Positions 9,177-63,726 of a stretch of 64,000 nt of DNA are shown here, piece after piece. The notes beneath the pieces are model-generated. The model was given only the letters and a program-made list of their open reading frames with translations. It did not search any database and was not told where the DNA came from. The stretch comes from Minisyncoccia bacterium (lineage in GTDB: Bacteria > Patescibacteriota > Minisyncoccia > UBA6257 > JAAZHW01): positions 3,784-67,783 of the forward strand of contig JBNASH010000033.1 of the NCBI GenBank assembly GCA_049720475.1. The letters are read 5' to 3'. The position numbers and the translations under genes are program-made. Within the stretch, counting starts at the first letter, position 1. The number at the start of each line of letters is the position of its first letter.

Positions 9177-10892
9177 CTAAATCGTTTTTTCATCAATTAA
9201 AACTTTGATTCTGTTGGGATTTAAAGGTGTAAACTTTAGGAATTTTGGCCAGATGTCTATTTCTACTTTATTGATAGTTTTATATTGCTTTAAAAATGAT
9301 TCGAGATTATTAACATTTTTTCCTGCCAAATTATTAATGAATTCAGATAAAGAAATTCTGTCACAGAAAACCAAATTAGCAGTAACAGGAAAAGATAAAA
9401 GTTTTTTATCAAAATCAAATCGAGCAGCGCCATAATTGAATTGATAACTAAATAATTCTTTATCCGATAATTGAGAATTGCTTTTTTGGGCTTCATTAAC
9501 AAACAATTTTTTAATATCTTCTTCATTAAATACCAAACTCTTCATCGTAATTTTAGCAGTAGCCTCAAATTGTTCTGCTTTTTCATCTAGTTTTGGATTG
9601 GTTGAAAAACTGACAATTGTAATTTGTTTCGCATCAGGCAAAACAATATCATTAGAAAGCAATTTACTCTTTAACTCTTCTTCCAAAGAAAGAGAAGCAA
9701 TTTCAATTAATTTACTTTTGGCTTGATTAATATCTGATTGACCAACTACTTTTGTTGTTCCTATATAACCACCGGTCATCGGCGAAAGAGATTCAGCATA
9801 AAATTTAGTATAGCGCGGCGTCCCTTCAAAACCAGGAATAGTAAAGGTTGTTGGGCCAATATTATAAGATTCGCCGGCTTGATCAGCGACAACTTCCGCA
9901 TCAATATAAGACGGAACAATTTTTCCATCCTGAATTTTAGCGCCGGGAATTGTTGTTTTGTTTACTAATCTAAAAAGTTTTCCTTCTTTTGATAAAAATC
10001 TTGTTGTTGCCACCAAAACCTGGGGTTCGGAGCTATAAGCATTATAAATTCTTATTGTACCCCTGGCTTTAGCTTGAATAGTTTTTATTTCGGTGGCAGG
10101 AAAGTTTTGAGTAATTGTACGGGAGAATTCAAAAAATTTTACAGGGATTTTAAAATTAGTTTGATCAATCTCGCTAATTCCAGCTGTTGCTAAAACTGGA
10201 ATTTGCTCGGACCAATTATATTTATTAGAAAAAATTCTTACTTCTGCTTTGGCAATAAAATAAATAAGGAAAAAAATGAGGAGAACAAAAACGAAAACGG
10301 AGGCTGACAAAATTTTGATGCCTTTTGTAATTTTAATTTTTGGCTTGAAAGATTTTTCTCTTTTTATTTCTGCTTCATCCAATTCAACGCCGCTGAAATC
10401 TGCTTCGTCAAAATAATCTGTAAAAAATTTTTTCTCAGTATTAATTTTACTCTCCTCACCTTTACCTTTTTTAACCTCAACTTTTTTGGGTTTTTCTGTT
10501 TCTATTTTTTGAATAATTTCTTTAATCTCTGGCAATTCTTCTTCTGATCTCACATCGATTTTCTTTTCAGTTTTTTTTCTTTTTGGTGGCTTAATATCAC
10601 CTAGAAAATTTTTTGTTTTTGGCTTAGGCCTGCTTATTTCTGCCATTTCAATTAATTTCATTCCTGCTTCTTTGGCCATAGCCACAATCTCCTCAACATC
10701 GCTACTAACAAAAAGTTTTTTATCAGCAGCAGCCGCTTCTCTTTTGATCAATTTGAAATTTAACAAAGAATCGGCGATTTTTGCGTTTTGCGGAATAATT
10801 AAAACAACGGTGTCGTTTTTAGAATTAATAATTTTTTCAACGACCTCAGAAACCGATTCAGTTATATCAACATAAATATTTTCTGCTTTCAT
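9177..10892 (-). CDS. Hypothetical membrane-anchored protein (571 aa)
   Basis: N-terminal cytoplasmic domain, Lys/Glu-rich linker, one TM helix (ILSASVFVFVLLIFFLIYFIA) and a large beta-rich extracytoplasmic part. I recognised no family. Confidence 0.5.
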   Translation of the reverse strand: MKAENIYVDITESVSEVVEKIINSKNDTVVLIIPQNAKIADSLLNFKLIKREAAAADKKLFVSSDVEEIVAMAKEAGMKLIEMAEISRPKPKTKNFLGDIKPPKRKKTEKKIDVRSEEELPEIKEIIQKIETEKPKKVEVKKGKGEESKINTEKKFFTDYFDEADFSGVELDEAEIKREKSFKPKIKITKGIKILSASVFVFVLLIFFLIYFIAKAEVRIFSNKYNWSEQIPVLATAGISEIDQTNFKIPVKFFEFSRTITQNFPATEIKTIQAKARGTIRIYNAYSSEPQVLVATTRFLSKEGKLFRLVNKTTIPGAKIQDGKIVPSYIDAEVVADQAGESYNIGPTTFTIPGFEGTPRYTKFYAESLSPMTGGYIGTTKVVGQSDINQAKSKLIEIASLSLEEELKSKLLSNDIVLPDAKQITIVSFSTNPKLDEKAEQFEATAKITMKSLVFNEEDIKKLFVNEAQKSNSQLSDKELFSYQFNYGAARFDFDKKLLSFPVTANLVFCDRISLSEFINNLAGKNVNNLESFLKQYKTINKVEIDIWPKFLKFTPLNPNRIKVLIDEKTI

Positions 10893-12157
10893 TTTTTATA
10901 ATTTTTTAATAAATTTTGATTTAACCATTTAATTCGACGTTTTAAAATTTTGTTCATTTCCTCATATTTAGGCTCTGACACAAAAGGATAAACTAAATTA
11001 GGTATAAGGTTAAAAGAGATATTTGCGGCTCTATTATCCTCTACTTCAATTTCCAAATCAGAAAGAAATCTTTCATTATCATAATAAATTATATTAACCG
11101 GCGTTTTAAAAATACTCACAGGCCAATGGTTTTTTTCAAAACTCTCTATTAAACCAGGAAAGTTTTTCAAAAGACCTATTAAATAAAAACCTTCGATTTT
11201 TTCTTTTGGCGATATTTCTTTAGCCGTTAAGTTCACGCCATCCAATAAAATTTTCAATTCCTTATCAAATAATTTTTTTAACCAATTACTTGCATTCTCG
11301 CTTAAATCACCATTCTCATATTTGTTTTTTATTTCTGTGGCGGTTGTCAAAGAAACAGAAAGGTTTTGAGAAATAGCGAGCAATAAATTCTTTTCTCCCC
11401 AATCAAAATATTTGGCTGTGTTTAAATAATCTGTTATCAATCCGGCGCTCGTAATCGTATAACCAATTTCGACAAGAATATTTTTCTCTATATTATTTAT
11501 TAAAGAAAAAGTTTTATCAAAAATCAAATTTTTTTCTCCGATAAAAAGCAGTTCGCCACCCCATTGCTCTAAAACATTCTTTACTGCTTCCCAAAAAAGG
11601 CAGTGCATGTAAACATTCTCAACACAAAAAGAAAATGTTTTGCCGGTAAAACCAAGAGGATTTAAAACTCTTTTATCATCAATGCGAGGATCGCTTAATT
11701 TTGAATGTGCCAAAACCACATCCCATTCAGAAATTTTCATTTTTTGTCCAACAAAAATACGCTCTTTATCATACAAACGCCAAATCAGATTTAAAATGAC
11801 ATTTTCCAATTCTTCGTGATCAATTGCGGTTAAAGGATTGTCCCTAACAACAGAAAGGCGCGTTTTCGTTGATTTAATAAACGGTTGTTCAAAACTGATA
11901 ATCGCTGGTGTTTTTTTGGAAATTTTTTTAATCTCTTTAGTTAAAATTTTCACCAAATCCTCTTCTCCAAATCCCTCATCATTATCACAAAAATAATTTT
12001 TGATTTTTTTAATTTTTATTTTCTTTTTTTCAAAATCTACCAACGCCAAAGCCGCAGCTATTTCTCTCATTCCTCCAAAAAAGCAAAAAACAGGTTTCCA
12101 ATTTTTATGAAATATTTTGAACATCGTAAATTTTCCTCTCTTTATAATTATAATCAA
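10889..12157 (-). CDS. Hypothetical protein (422 aa; alternative start at 12124)
   Basis: Long ORF whose stop overlaps the downstream start by 4 nt (ATGA). No motif recognised. Confidence 0.5.
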   Translation of the reverse strand: MIIIIKRGKFTMFKIFHKNWKPVFCFFGGMREIAAALALVDFEKKKIKIKKIKNYFCDNDEGFGEEDLVKILTKEIKKISKKTPAIISFEQPFIKSTKTRLSVVRDNPLTAIDHEELENVILNLIWRLYDKERIFVGQKMKISEWDVVLAHSKLSDPRIDDKRVLNPLGFTGKTFSFCVENVYMHCLFWEAVKNVLEQWGGELLFIGEKNLIFDKTFSLINNIEKNILVEIGYTITSAGLITDYLNTAKYFDWGEKNLLLAISQNLSVSLTTATEIKNKYENGDLSENASNWLKKLFDKELKILLDGVNLTAKEISPKEKIEGFYLIGLLKNFPGLIESFEKNHWPVSIFKTPVNIIYYDNERFLSDLEIEVEDNRAANISFNLIPNLVYPFVSEPKYEEMNKILKRRIKWLNQNLLKNYKK

Positions 12158-12165
12158 TAAAGCCG

Positions 12166-13947
12166 CTATTCCAAAATCGCTTTAATCCGTCTGACGCCGC
12201 TTGAAACCGCTTCTTCTTTAATTATTTTAAAATGTCCTAGAATACCTGTATTTTGCACGTGGGGTCCACCACAAATTTCTTTTGAATAAGCTTTTGCTGG
12301 ATCACCAATAAAATAAACTTTGACTCGTTCGCCATATTTATCTTCAAAAAGTCCAACAGCACCAATTTCTTTCGCTCTACTTAAACTCATTTCTTCCATA
12401 TAAACCGGCAGGTTCTCTTGTATTTTCTGATTAACTATTTCTTCAACTTTCTTTAATTGCTCTGGGGTAGGCTTTCCCGAATAAGAATAATCAAAACGCA
12501 ACCGCTCTTCATTGATATGACTACCTCTTTGTTTAACTTCCTCACCTAAAACTTCTCTTAAAGCTTTATGCAATAAATGAGTGGCTGTGTGATACTTGAT
12601 AGCTTTTTCAGAATGTTCCGCTAATCCTCCTTTAAACATCCCAGCCGATGCCGTACGTGATAATTCTTGATGTTTTTTAAATTCCTGATTAAAACCATCC
12701 TCGTCAATTTTTACCCCTTTTTCCTTGGCTATCTCTTTAATTAATTCCAAAGGAAAACCATAACTTTGATACAAACCAAAAGCATCCGCGCCACTAATCT
12801 CATTTTTGTTTTGAATAATTTTTTCTAATATATTAAGACCTCTTTCCAGTGTTTTGGTAAATTTTTCTTCTTCGCGAACTAATTGTTCTTCGATAAAATC
12901 CTTATTTTCCTTGATCTCTGAGTAAAAATCGCCATAAATTTCTAAAACAGGGGCAAGTAGTTGAAAAGAAAAAGTTTTTTGAACGCCTAACAATCGCCCA
13001 AACCGAACCGCTCGACGAATTAACCTTCTTAAAATATATCCCCTTTCCACATTCGATGGTTCTAACTTTTCAGCCAGCAAAAAAATAGCTGCTTTTAAAT
13101 GATCGGCAATAATTCTAAATTCTCTTGCATATTCACTATATTTTTTGCCAGTAATTTCCTCGATTTTTTTAATCAATGGTTCAAAAAGCTCGGTTTCAAA
13201 AACTGTTGGCAAACCATTAATGGCAGCAAGCGTTCTTTCTAACCCCATTCCCGTATCAACATTTTTTTGTTTCAAAACTTCATAAGTACCATCGGCTTTG
13301 CGATTATAAGTCATAAAAACATTATTCCAAATTTCTACCCAGTTAGGATTTTTTGGGTCAAAATTTTTTGGCGCTGGCTCATTAGAAATCCAATAAAAAA
13401 TTTCTGAATCAGGACCACAGGGTCCGGTTTCACCAATCGGCCCCCACCAATTATCTTTTTTGCCCAAAAAAGCAATCCGCTCCGCCGGAATACCTGAGCG
13501 GCGCCAGATTTGATAAGATTCCTCATCTTTCGGCGCATCTTCATCGCCACCAAAACAAGTCACCGCCAACCGATTTTTATCTAATGCCAGCCATTGGGGC
13601 GAAGTTAAAAATTCCAGACTCCAACTAAGCGATTCTTCTTTAAAATAATCACCCAAAGACCAATTGCCTAACATTTCAAAAAAAGTTAAATGTGAAGCAT
13701 CGCCCACTTCTTCAATATCATCAGTTCTCAAACATTTTTGAACATCACACAATCGCTTGCCCGCTGGATGCTTTTCACCAAGCAAAAAAGGAATTAAAGG
13801 ATGCATCCCGGCCGTCGTAAAAAGAACACTTGGATCGTTTTCTGGAATTAAAGGAGCCGAGGGTAATCTTTTGTGTCCTCTTTCTTCAAAAAATTTTAAA
13901 AATTTTTCTCGCAATTCATTTCCTCTCATAATTTTTATTCTAATCAT
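12166..13947 (-). CDS. alaS: Alanyl-tRNA synthetase, short form (likely start at 13929, MRGNELREKF)
   Basis: FLKFFEERGHKRLPSAPLIP...DPSVLFTTAGM, WNNVFM, HTATHLLHKALREVLG and CGGPHV motifs. The ORF ends soon after the editing-site motifs. Confidence 0.9.
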   Translation of the reverse strand: MIRIKIMRGNELREKFLKFFEERGHKRLPSAPLIPENDPSVLFTTAGMHPLIPFLLGEKHPAGKRLCDVQKCLRTDDIEEVGDASHLTFFEMLGNWSLGDYFKEESLSWSLEFLTSPQWLALDKNRLAVTCFGGDEDAPKDEESYQIWRRSGIPAERIAFLGKKDNWWGPIGETGPCGPDSEIFYWISNEPAPKNFDPKNPNWVEIWNNVFMTYNRKADGTYEVLKQKNVDTGMGLERTLAAINGLPTVFETELFEPLIKKIEEITGKKYSEYAREFRIIADHLKAAIFLLAEKLEPSNVERGYILRRLIRRAVRFGRLLGVQKTFSFQLLAPVLEIYGDFYSEIKENKDFIEEQLVREEEKFTKTLERGLNILEKIIQNKNEISGADAFGLYQSYGFPLELIKEIAKEKGVKIDEDGFNQEFKKHQELSRTASAGMFKGGLAEHSEKAIKYHTATHLLHKALREVLGEEVKQRGSHINEERLRFDYSYSGKPTPEQLKKVEEIVNQKIQENLPVYMEEMSLSRAKEIGAVGLFEDKYGERVKVYFIGDPAKAYSKEICGGPHVQNTGILGHFKIIKEEAVSSGVRRIKAILE

Positions 13948-13954
13948 TTTTTTA

Positions 13955-13984
13955 AAAAAGAAAAATCCGCCCTACTGGCGGATT
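13955..13984 (-). terminator. Intrinsic terminator of cassette A (stop codon in the loop)
   Basis: Minus strand AATCCGCC-AGTAG-GGCGGATT followed by TTTTCTTTTTT. The TAG stop of 13972..14352 lies in the loop. Confidence 0.7.
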
Positions 13985-14352
13985 GACTTTCTTAGAATTT
14001 CTACTCTTAAAAAGAAATTTCCTTCTTTTCTTTCAGCGATTTCTTCAATTTTTTCTTTTCCGACCGCCTTTTCTAACTCACCTACTTTAACCTCCACAAT
14101 TTGCAAAAATTTCTTTAAGGGCAACAGTTTGAAAACATTTACAGCTTCAACTTTCAATAATACTGGTTTAACTAATCTAACAATTCTGTTTTCTCTTTCT
14201 AAAATTATTTCTCTTCTTCCTCTCTTCTCCATTAATTTAATTAAACTTCTTTCGATTTTCTCTTCTTCTTTTTCTATGTGAGCCTTTTTTCTCCGCAGCT
14301 CCACTAGCTGCCTCCCTAATTTTTCCAACCGATGGTTTCTATTTTTTCTCAT
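13972..14352 (-). CDS. Hypothetical coiled-coil protein (126 aa), cassette A gene 2
   Basis: ATG at 14352 is preceded by GAAAGGAGGCAAA. N-terminal Arg/Lys/Glu coiled coil, then a beta-rich part. Any resemblance to phage Gam-like proteins is weak and unverified. Confidence 0.5.
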   Translation of the reverse strand: MRKNRNHRLEKLGRQLVELRRKKAHIEKEEEKIERSLIKLMEKRGRREIILERENRIVRLVKPVLLKVEAVNVFKLLPLKKFLQIVEVKVGELEKAVGKEKIEEIAERKEGNFFLRVEILRKSIRQ

Positions 14353-14611
14353 TTTGCCTCCTTTCAATCTTTTCAATAAAATCTCTTAAAACAAAAAATC
14401 GGCGTTTTTTTAGTTCATCCTGCCTCTGCTTCAAATTAGCAATTTTTTCATTGATTTCGTATAAATCCTGCATCCATCGCAACCGACTCAACTCTGCCCC
14501 CCAAAATTCCTGTTTGCTCAATAAACTTCTTTGTAGTTCCAATCTTTGCACCTCAGTTTCCAAAAAAGCAATCTCTCTACTGAGTAACAAAATAATTTCT
14601 CTTTCACTCAT
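14339..14611 (-). CDS. Hypothetical coiled-coil protein (90 aa), cassette A gene 1
   Basis: ATG at 14611 is preceded by TTAAAAATTTAATAAAGGAGGTTTTATAAA. Heptad-like sequence LETEVQRLELQRSLL...ANLKQRQDELKK. Confidence 0.55.
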   Translation of the reverse strand: MSEREIILLLSREIAFLETEVQRLELQRSLLSKQEFWGAELSRLRWMQDLYEINEKIANLKQRQDELKKRRFFVLRDFIEKIERRQNEKK

Positions 14612-14656
14612 TTTATAAAACCTCCTTTATTAAATTTTTAATTTTTGCTAACTTTA

Positions 14657-14684
14657 ATATTACAATTTTTTATTTATTTGTCAA
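14657..14684 (-). promoter_or_regulatory. Consensus promoter TTGACA-16-(TG)TAATAT of cassette A
   Basis: Minus-strand TTGACA 14684..14679 and TGTAATAT 14664..14657, about 45 nt upstream of the ATG at 14611. Confidence 0.6.
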
Positions 14685-62810: not shown

Positions 62811-63605
62811 TTAATTTTCTTCTTGGAAGTCCCTCAGGGACAGGCCCCGAGGGTTTTTTTCTACCTCATCCGCTGCCCGAAGGGGCAATTCCTTGCCCCT
62901 TCTCGCCTCAACCACCCTTCTTTTTTCTTTTATTTTTTTATTTTTAGAAGGGGAAGGGGAGGCAGGGGAGGCAGGCTCCGGTGGTTGTGGCCGAATTAGT
63001 TGCGGTGGACGGGTTGGGATTGGGACTTTTTTAAGCCCCGCTTCCCATTTGGGGTTGGGAAGTCTCCGATCGGACTCAAAGAGTTCGACCGAGACTTTCA
63101 GGATTTCCTCGTCAACCTGACCGACGAGGAAATCCCGCAGGGATTCCTTATCCCGCACATAGTGCGGGATATCAATCATTACTCTCTCTCTTTCTAAGAG
63201 AGAGTAATGATTTCCCTGACGGGCTACCCCTAGGTAGTCCGCCACCAGTTTCCGGCCATGGAACCGTACAACGGTCCCATTCCGGAAAAGAAGTAACCAC
63301 TTCCCCACTTTATTGTTAAAGTGGGGAGTGATAAGTTTGTTCTCCCCAACCACTACAGCCCAGCCCTTGGGACCGGGCACAGAAAGGGAAATCTGAAACC
63401 ACTGGGGCTGCCCCAGTTGGGGCAAAAACACCCAAGGTTTCACAATTCCCCGCTCTACCACCACGCACGGCACTTTCAGCCGTGCTTTTAAAGGATCAAA
63501 GTGGACGCCCTGAAGGGCGCCACTTTTAATCCTCTCCAGAATGTCCTGCGGTTTGGGAATGCGTTCCCAAACCGCCCAGATTTTCAAAAAATTACTCCTG
63601 ATCAT
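62811..63605 (-). CDS. Hypothetical protein (264 aa) of the GC-rich island: beta-rich N-domain, Pro-rich linker, basic tail
   Basis: ATG preceded by TTAAAAATTTAATAGGAGGTTTTAA. Plausible protein composition. The ORF is overlaid by many perfect hairpins (see findings). Confidence 0.55.
   Translation of the reverse strand: MIRSNFLKIWAVWERIPKPQDILERIKSGALQGVHFDPLKARLKVPCVVVERGIVKPWVFLPQLGQPQWFQISLSVPGPKGWAVVVGENKLITPHFNNKVGKWLLLFRNGTVVRFHGRKLVADYLGVARQGNHYSLLERERVMIDIPHYVRDKESLRDFLVGQVDEEILKVSVELFESDRRLPNPKWEAGLKKVPIPTRPPQLIRPQPPEPASPASPSPSKNKKIKEKRRVVEARRGKELPLRAADEVEKNPRGLSLRDFQEEN
63101..63212. repeat. Three consecutive perfect inverted repeats (13, 10 and 16 bp stems) inside the ORF
   Basis: GGATTTCCTCGTC-N9-GACGAGGAAATCC (63101..63135); TATCCCGCAC-ATA-GTGCGGGATA (63149..63171); AATCATTACTCTCTCT-N7-AGAGAGAGTAATGATT (63174..63212). 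Confidence 0.9.
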
Positions 63606-63628
63606 TTAAAACCTCCTATTAAATTTTT

Positions 63629-63672
63629 AACAAGGTGTGGCCCGGGCCGATAGCCCTAAGGTTCACCTTGTT
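63629..63672 (-). promoter_or_regulatory. 5-prime-UTR stem-loop immediately upstream of the SD leader
   Basis: AACAAGGTG...CACCTTGTT 9-bp stem enclosing GGCCCGGGCC and GGGC-N5-GCCC sub-helices. A TATTGACTTTTT promoter-like box lies at 63701..63712. Confidence 0.5.
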
Positions 63673-63726
63673 GCTGTTTTAAGAATATCATAAAAATACA
63701 AAAAGTCAATAGGGTTGAAGAATAAA

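Follow-up and report, generated by a model that had tools for sequence, protein, structure and literature searches.

A two-gene operon with strain-variable alleles next to alaS in a Minisyncoccia clade, and remote relatives of its second product in mobile-element-like replication modules

The stretch of DNA analyzed here, 64,000 nucleotides (nt) of contig JBNASH010000033.1 from an uncultivated Minisyncoccia bacterium and referred to as the window, carries a compact operon between a sugar transferase gene (Bac_transf) and alaS. The operon is composed of two small open reading frames (ORFs), ORF1 and ORF2, encoding proteins of 90 and 126 amino acids (aa). The original prediction, derived from the letters of the window without database searches, had described an autonomous unit with a promoter, two ORFs each led by a Shine-Dalgarno site and overlapping by 14 nt, and a terminator whose loop holds a TAG stop codon. 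All of these parts were verified. The operon features are located on the minus strand, and positions refer to window coordinates (Table 1). Related loci used for comparison are designated by L numbers.

Table 1. Positions of the operon features and of the adjoining alaS promoter element (pI, isoelectric point; dN/dS, ratio of nonsynonymous to synonymous substitution rates)
Feature	Positions	Strand	Evidence or remark
Promoter, sigma-70-type	14657..14684	-	10 of 12 consensus positions
Leader, ~40 nt, with Shine-Dalgarno site AAGGAGG at 14627-14621	14612..14656	-	Homologous to the leader directly 5' of ORF2 where ORF1 is absent
ORF1, 90 aa, pI 9.5	14339..14611	-	dN/dS 0.15-0.29
Shine-Dalgarno site of ORF2, AAGGAGG, within the 3' end of ORF1	14357..14363	-	Translational coupling
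ORF2, ATG start, 126 aa, pI 10.4	13972..14352	-	dN/dS 0.06-0.21; homologues; AlphaFold2 model
Intrinsic terminator: 8-bp GC-rich stem, 5-nt loop, T-run	13954..13984	-	Folding energy; pairing kept across genomes
Strain-variable tract	13975..14652	.	~80% identity to L007 and L009; flanks (12.4 kb, 4.4 kb) ~99.5%
-10 box of alaS, TAGAAT at 13942-13937	13927..13942	-	Conserved in the window, L001 and L177

Organization and coding status of the operon

The promoter combines a -35 hexamer TTGACA (14684-14679) and a -10 hexamer TAATAT (14662-14657), separated by a spacer of 16 nt, and constitutes the top-scoring promoter-like site in the region of 12-17 kb. The -35 hexamer and the promoter layout are kept in L006-L009, L001, and L177. 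The predicted TTGACA box with its 16-nt spacer was thus recovered, but a canonical TGn extended -10 element was not, as the TG directly abuts the -10 hexamer.

At the opposite end, the stem of the terminator is formed by AATCCGCC and GGCGGATT at 13984-13964, and its loop contains the TAG stop codon of ORF2 (13974-13972). The folding energy of -18 kcal/mol (z = -4.7) was not equaled by any of 200 shuffled sequences. Furthermore, the stem pairing survives sequence change: an A-T pair is replaced by G-C in L177, and L006 reveals a G-T wobble together with a longer stem. The overlap of the two ORFs, 14 nt in the window, is reduced to an ATGA overlap in L006. ORF2 of L216-L219 is four codons shorter at its 3' end, which leaves ~45 nt between its stop codon and the downstream hairpin. 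Thus, the location of the stop codon in the loop and the last residues of ORF2, S-I-R-Q, represent a clade-specific overlap that is not essential to the protein. An Rfam scan of the region returned only sub-threshold terminator-like leader matches, with neither a T-box nor a riboswitch among them, and thereby ruled out the operon as a leader RNA of alaS.

Both ORFs are real genes under purifying selection, since pairwise dN/dS values are low among the five to six orthologous loci compared (Table 1) and nucleotide differences cluster at third codon positions. The NCBI annotation of ORF1 reads hypothetical protein and belongs to a metagenome-assembled genome labelled 'Minisyncoccia bacterium'.

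Heptad-like helices had been proposed for both products. For ORF2 this was borne out, as residues 7-44 reveal a significant heptad periodicity (reached by 13 of 2,000 shuffled sequences). In ORF1, the periodicity of helix 1 is marginal (83 of 2,000), and that of helix 2 is not significant by the same shuffle test. ORF1 is probably a two-helix coiled-coil hairpin. For ORF2, an AlphaFold2 model was built from 17 sequences, with a predicted local distance difference test score (pLDDT) of 79; a model from 6 sequences (pLDDT 53) was not used. In the model, residues 4-44 form a helix that leads into a beta-hairpin (48-61); four short helices occupy residues 70-105, and a strand comprises 114-119. 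ORF2 is thus predicted to be composed of a long helix followed by a small alpha/beta domain.

A Foldseek search of this model against the PDB gave no match. Among the viral models of BFVD, its best matches are uncharacterised Caudovirales proteins of 118-154 aa with template-modeling (TM) scores of ~0.5. A0A6J7WQQ0 (135 aa) and A0A6J5NEL6 (128 aa), for example, resemble ORF2 in length and in the combination of a long helix with a small domain; TM scores range from 0.5 to 0.58 and Foldseek E-values from 1e-4 to 2e-2. In contrast, sequence identity is only 14-19%, and the root-mean-square deviation is high due to a different angle between helix and domain.

Synteny, gene gain and allelic variation

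In every contig that carries the ORFs, the gene order is SecD-SecF-Bac_transf-[ORF1]-ORF2-alaS-two unknown genes-infA-rpsM-rpsK, ORF1 being present in some loci and missing in others. This order was found in 10 or more independent contigs, in which the identity of ORF2 to the window copy ranges from 94% down to 40%. It holds for the 40%-identical ORF2 of GCA_020049655.1 (L177) and likewise for four JGI metagenome contigs (L216-L219). In 80 species representatives of GTDB, neither ORF has a relative at a distance of up to 5 kb from alaS. AlaRS identity among them is 59% at best, and thus the lineage is poorly represented by these genomes.

ORF1 is present in L006-L010 and L216-L219 and missing from L001-L005 and L177; as judged from these loci, it is restricted to one sub-clade. 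The contigs L216-L219 form a sister clade with ORF1 and an ORF2 of 122 aa. Where ORF1 is missing, a TTGACA promoter and a leader with the sequence TTAGCAA...AAAAATTT(T)AATAAGGAGG stand immediately 5' of ORF2, and this promoter and leader are homologous to those now located 5' of ORF1 in the window. The ORF1-less loci thus indicate that the ancestral unit consisted of promoter, leader, ORF2, and terminator, and that ORF1 was added later between leader and ORF2. The new Shine-Dalgarno site of ORF2 lies within the 3' end of ORF1.

According to the original prediction, the unit is a cassette wedged between a sugar transferase gene and alaS. An insertion of this kind was not supported: in every relative found, ORF2 fills the same slot, the promoter and leader belong to the ancestral locus, and direct repeats bounding the unit were not found. 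The same observations exclude a recently inserted mobile cassette, ORF1 being the only part that is variably present.

On the level of strains, the operon coincides with a sharply delimited variable tract (Table 1). Window and L007 share 98.6% identity over 12.4 kb, with ~137 differences inside 13975-14652 and 0-3 per 200 nt elsewhere. On the protein level, the neighbours are 99-100% identical to those of L007, in contrast to 80% for ORF2 and ~76-79% for ORF1. L009 carries a different allele and follows the same pattern, with a variable tract at 14015-14632 and an ORF2 of 83% identity. This allele and its flanks were found again in L010, which originates from an independent sample, at 99.9% identity.

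Within the tract, the synonymous rate dS is 0.4-1.0, dN/dS is ~0.15, and the ratio of transitions to transversions is ~2.5:1. These values indicate that the ORF1-ORF2 alleles are old and constrained rather than products of local hypermutation or of a diversity-generating retroelement. Either origin of the tract was rejected, the substitutions being balanced, transition-rich, and third-position-biased. The pattern of old alleles within flanks of ~99.5% identity implies, as far as can be read from the aligned loci, that the diverged alleles reached near-identical backgrounds by homologous recombination, i.e., by allele replacement, the exchanged tracts ending in the conserved promoter and leader on one side and in the terminator and alaS promoter on the other.

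On a larger scale as well, the divergence seen in the operon does not track that seen in its flanks. Relative to the window, Bac_transf and ORF2 reveal identities of 82% and 48% in L217/L218, and of 74% and 63% in L006. Furthermore, alleles of the two genes have been reassorted: L216 and L219 share an ORF1 allele, and L218 and L219 share an ORF2 allele. L008 shows a breakpoint in the 3' part of ORF2 (window ~14000-14100). On the side of SecDF, Bac_transf, and ORF1, it is nearly identical to the window, and on the alaS side identity drops to ~82% for at least 6 kb. Along this line, the population swaps long blocks between lineages that are ~18% diverged.

Remote relatives of ORF2 and possible roles of the operon

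Searches of both products against Pfam, PHROGs, NCBIfam, PADLOC, PDB sequences, and PDB profiles gave nothing significant; a faint match of ORF1 to DivIC has an E-value of 0.48. ORF1 as a duplicate of the ORF2 N-terminus was rejected, as the hhalign comparison was null. Close relatives are very rare, with five protein clusters for ORF2 and 5 for ORF1 among 5.8 billion proteins.

More distant relatives of ORF2 were identified with a profile (A1) of the six closest ORF2 sequences, which was searched against 1.84 billion representative proteins and gave 9 proteins at E <= 1e-3. The remote matches P0013-P0017 are full-length and collinear, with E-values from 1e-6 to 7e-5; the proteins matched over their full length have 116-170 aa. 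Gly98 is invariant among ORF2 and these relatives, and Phe82 and Val117 are nearly so. Four more clusters were recovered when the search was repeated with an alignment enlarged by these sequences. In family scans, the distant relatives likewise remained without a significant match. A tblastn search of ORF2 and P0017 against 50,697 phage genomes gave no match, and pattern scans with the ORF2 alignment revealed no relatives in IMG/VR or in all GTDB species-representative genomes. ORF2 and its relatives thus represent a protein family absent from Pfam, PHROGs, NCBIfam, and PADLOC, whichever interpretation of the operon holds.

Where the genomic context of the remote relatives is readable, it consists of long runs of small genes on the same strand. 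These runs include SNF2 and DEAD/ResIII helicases (phrog_62, phrog_16), a primase (phrog_47), a DnaB-like helicase (phrog_19), a replication initiator, DUF932, an FtsK-like protein, and Pam3_gp32. They represent replication modules of phages or other mobile elements, with phages as the likely source. A recurrent arrangement was seen in the phage-like contigs (L011, 5064-7907; L012, 9001-12289; and the contig with P0021): without exception, 3-5 small unannotated ORFs and then a phrog_16 DEAD/ResIII helicase come after the ORF2 relative. These small ORFs and the helicase may form a conserved module of small proteins.

The link to mobile elements suggested by the original prediction therefore holds for the remote relatives of ORF2, located in phage- or plasmid-like replication modules, but not for the unit itself, which is chromosomal and syntenic. 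Universal synteny combined with a lack of homology to mobile-element proteins had been named as the outcome that would speak against such a link. Synteny is indeed universal within the clade, and remote mobile-element homology exists nevertheless.

We interpret the locus as a self-contained two-gene operon long resident in one Minisyncoccia clade, combining a captured mobile-element gene, ORF2, with a later partner, ORF1, and possibly acting in conflict with phages or other mobile elements. To this interpretation as a whole we assign a probability of roughly one half. ORF2 is the older gene. Because the other family members are found in replication modules of phage- or plasmid-like elements, it was most likely captured from such a module, as a member of a very rare, uncurated family, and fixed beside alaS in the ancestor of the clade; the opposite direction, elements borrowing a host gene, would be the less economical alternative. 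Its heptad helix of ~40 residues would probably act as a dimerising coiled coil, and its small basic alpha/beta domain may bind either nucleic acid or a protein active in replication or recombination. ORF1, inserted between the ancestral leader and ORF2 and translationally coupled to it, would probably serve as a coiled-coil partner or modulator, its helical hairpin packing against the ORF2 helix and modulating ORF2. The conserved flanks, promoter and leader on one side and terminator and alaS promoter on the other, would provide anchors for recombination by which whole ORF1-ORF2 alleles are swapped between strains. Diverged alleles in near-identical backgrounds, taken together with the mobile-element ancestry, suggest a role in phage or mobile-element conflict as the most likely biology, e.g., in hindering the replication of incoming elements.

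Candidate Phyla Radiation (CPR) bacteria, or Patescibacteria, have tiny genomes with few recognised defence systems and encode many proteins without a known function. A more specific proposal is a hitherto unrecognised conflict module particular to the CPR, in which the captured phage replication-module protein and its coiled-coil partner would hit the replication or recombination machinery of incoming phages, ancient alleles being maintained by balancing selection. In this narrow form we regard the proposal as unlikely.

Several points weigh against a conflict role for a captured gene. The operon products match no known domain. The remote homology depends on HMMER E-values of 1e-6 to 1e-4, part of the score being contributed by the coiled-coil segment. 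The phage-like contigs reveal replication genes but no structural or virion genes within reach, so that a plasmid or an integrative element is conceivable in each case. The comparison contigs are mostly metagenome assemblies, in which different strains may be joined into chimeras. Finally, large blocks are exchanged (at least 6 kb in L008), and the short tracts covering the operon may therefore have arisen without selection on the operon, which we infer rather than observe.

The position close to ribosomal-protein genes, the strong promoter, and the strong Shine-Dalgarno sites fit a lineage-specific housekeeping protein as well. In such a scenario, ORF1 and ORF2 would be small, basic, abundant coiled-coil proteins associated with the nucleoid, the ribosome, or cell division, without a role in conflict, and phages would have borrowed the host gene. 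Strict synteny with secDF, alaS, infA, rpsM, rpsK, rpsD, and rpoA, the consensus promoter, the high pI values of both products (Table 1), purifying selection on both genes, and the faint similarity of ORF1 to DivIC are in agreement with this view. However, a housekeeping pair is hard to reconcile with its absence from the alaS neighbourhoods of the 80 GTDB representatives and from the GTDB-wide pattern scan, which found no ORF2 relative, and with a total of only ~20 clusters among billions of proteins. Moreover, ORF2 evolves faster than all neighbouring genes, its alleles are 20% apart between strains with identical flanks, and ORF1 is dispensable in two lineages. On balance, we consider a housekeeping role rather unlikely.

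The layout of two co-transcribed genes of 90 and 126 aa with an overlap of 4-14 nt, their own promoter and terminator, and alleles that differ between strains is also reminiscent of type II toxin-antitoxin operons, which likewise consist of two small, translationally coupled genes with strain-variable alleles, and the ORF2 relatives on mobile elements would suit an addiction module. Unlike the genes of such operons, neither product matches a family: no toxin, antitoxin, or defence model of Pfam, NCBIfam, or PADLOC was hit. ORF1 has no recognisable DNA-binding domain, and no convincing operator palindrome was found at the promoter. Furthermore, the two genes do not always occur together, as ORF2 stands alone in L001-L005 and L177, i.e., in two lineages. 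In the mobile-element contexts, no ORF1-sized partner was called beside the ORF2 homologues, these neighbours not having been compared with ORF1. An addiction module is thus very improbable.

The beta-rich half of ORF2 had been said to recall phage Gam-like DNA-end-binding proteins. In its full form, this idea makes ORF2 a diverged and miniaturised member of the Mu Gam/Sipho_Gp157/Ku superfamily that would sit as a dimer on double-strand DNA ends, shielding them from nucleases or blocking these enzymes. Mu Gam (PF07352), a Ku-like DNA-end binder, shares with ORF2 small size, basic character, a long N-terminal coiled-coil helix, a beta-hairpin, a mixed alpha/beta region, and ties to mobile-element DNA metabolism. 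The order of secondary-structure elements is the same (coiled-coil helix, beta-hairpin, helix, F-h-x-h segment, helix, and final strand), and a short motif consisting of the hairpin and L-x-L-x-x-F-h looks similar on a local level. Using a Mu Gam profile of 21 sequences from IMG/VR, hhalign repeatedly paired the hairpin and 'LPLKKFLQ' of ORF2 with the Gam hairpin and 'LGLQRFIR' (P = 0.016-0.03; 1 of 200 column shuffles reached the score). Among the remote relatives, P0016 weakly matches PF22709, the Mu_Gam-Sipho_Gp157-TOTE domain (E = 0.11), and P0017 has a weak match (phrog_434, E = 6e-4) to phage recombination exonucleases, in their C-terminal regions.

These similarities are opposed by the lack of any match that is significant on the level of sequence, profile, or fold. 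PF07352 and PF05565 were not reached by any member of the ORF2 family even at E <= 1 (E <= 1-10 for PF07352), in a scan in which Mu Gam itself scores 4e-42. The hhalign probability is 1.3-2.9% over 36-39 columns; the score is exceeded by that of a reversed-sequence control, and global alignment was unsuccessful. Gam is longer than ORF2 by ~50 residues, the 50 BFVD matches listed do not include Mu Gam, and the copy in the window belongs to a syntenic chromosomal locus and not to a transposable phage. The predicted resemblance lies at noise level by these measures.

For Gp157 (PF05565; orf157 in Streptococcus phage Sfi21), a link to phage resistance has been discussed (PMC6356513). Like ORF2, Gp157 is rich in coiled coil and of comparable size (~120-160 aa). 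It heads a phage replication module just 5' of NTPase and helicase genes, and the ORF2 relatives in phage-like contigs are likewise located upstream of a helicase, 3-5 small genes 5' of phrog_16. This position holds loosely for P0015, P0021, and P0022 but not for the chromosomal copy in the window. In contrast to these parallels, the intervening genes differ, a comparison of ORF2 with Sfi21 orf157 by hhalign gave no signal (probability 0.1%), the ORF2 family as a whole shows no profile signal to Gp157, and the one Gp157 among the listed BFVD matches is found at rank 34 with E ~1. The resemblance to Gam is a reasonable lead; membership of ORF2 in Gam, Ku, or Gp157 is not established, and we regard membership in the superfamily as quite unlikely.

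Independent of its precise role, the locus represents a compact and clearly bounded case in which a probable mobile-element gene was fixed in a housekeeping neighbourhood, gained a partner, and diverged sharply into alleles. If the operon acts in conflict, the defence repertoire known from an uncultivated phylum would be extended by a new, very small module, and strain-level population genetics would gain a marker locus. If the operon serves a housekeeping role, the two products would represent clade-specific accessory proteins of the nucleoid or the ribosome.

The probable alaS promoter and other features of the neighbourhood

The start of alaS had been placed about 25 nt after the unit. Homology supports the ATG at 13929 rather than the first ATG at 13947, giving a product of 587 aa. 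The -10 box of alaS (Table 1) is located 7 nt 5' of this start codon, and a Shine-Dalgarno site is not present. In three diverged genomes, such a box (TAGAAT or TACAAT, with TGAT before it) is found 6-7 nt 5' of the ATG; the regions concerned are 13927-13963 (minus strand) in the window, 5860-5881 in L001, and 7625-7651 in L177. A conserved -10 box just 5' of the start codon and the lack of a Shine-Dalgarno site suggest that the alaS mRNA is probably leaderless and transcribed from its own promoter. Operon and alaS would then represent separate transcription units. The putative alaS promoter overlaps the T-run of the operon terminator.

In L177 (7400-7600), the spacer between ORF2 and alaS extends to 265 nt and contains two further long palindromes, AGCTCATGAATTAATTCATGAATTAATTCATGAGCT and GGCGGCGGCGATTTTTCT...AAAAATCGCCGCCGCC, which are not found in the window. 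On its other side, alaS is followed by two conserved genes, one of ~411 aa (window 10889-12157, minus strand) and then one of ~560-573 aa in the related loci. Throughout the related loci, both keep their place between alaS and infA. The ~411-aa gene has no Pfam match in the window, and neither gene has a Pfam match on record in the related loci.

The leader of ORF1 had been described as shared almost exactly with an ORF at 63605. What the two have in common is a stretch of 24-26 nt beside the Shine-Dalgarno site, TTAAAAATTTAATA(AA)GGAGGTTTTA; the remaining leader differs. This stretch occurs exactly twice in the window, compared with 0 occurrences expected by chance, and its second copy is located at 63607-63630. 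The ORF in question (62811-63605, minus strand) encodes 264 aa without a Pfam match and lies in a stretch of 42% GC, compared with ~32% elsewhere. ORF and leader together fall within window 62811-63700; further upstream, the leader contains a GC-rich hairpin, AACAAGGTG...CACCTTGTT, and this hairpin is preceded by a TTGACT/TATGAT-like promoter.

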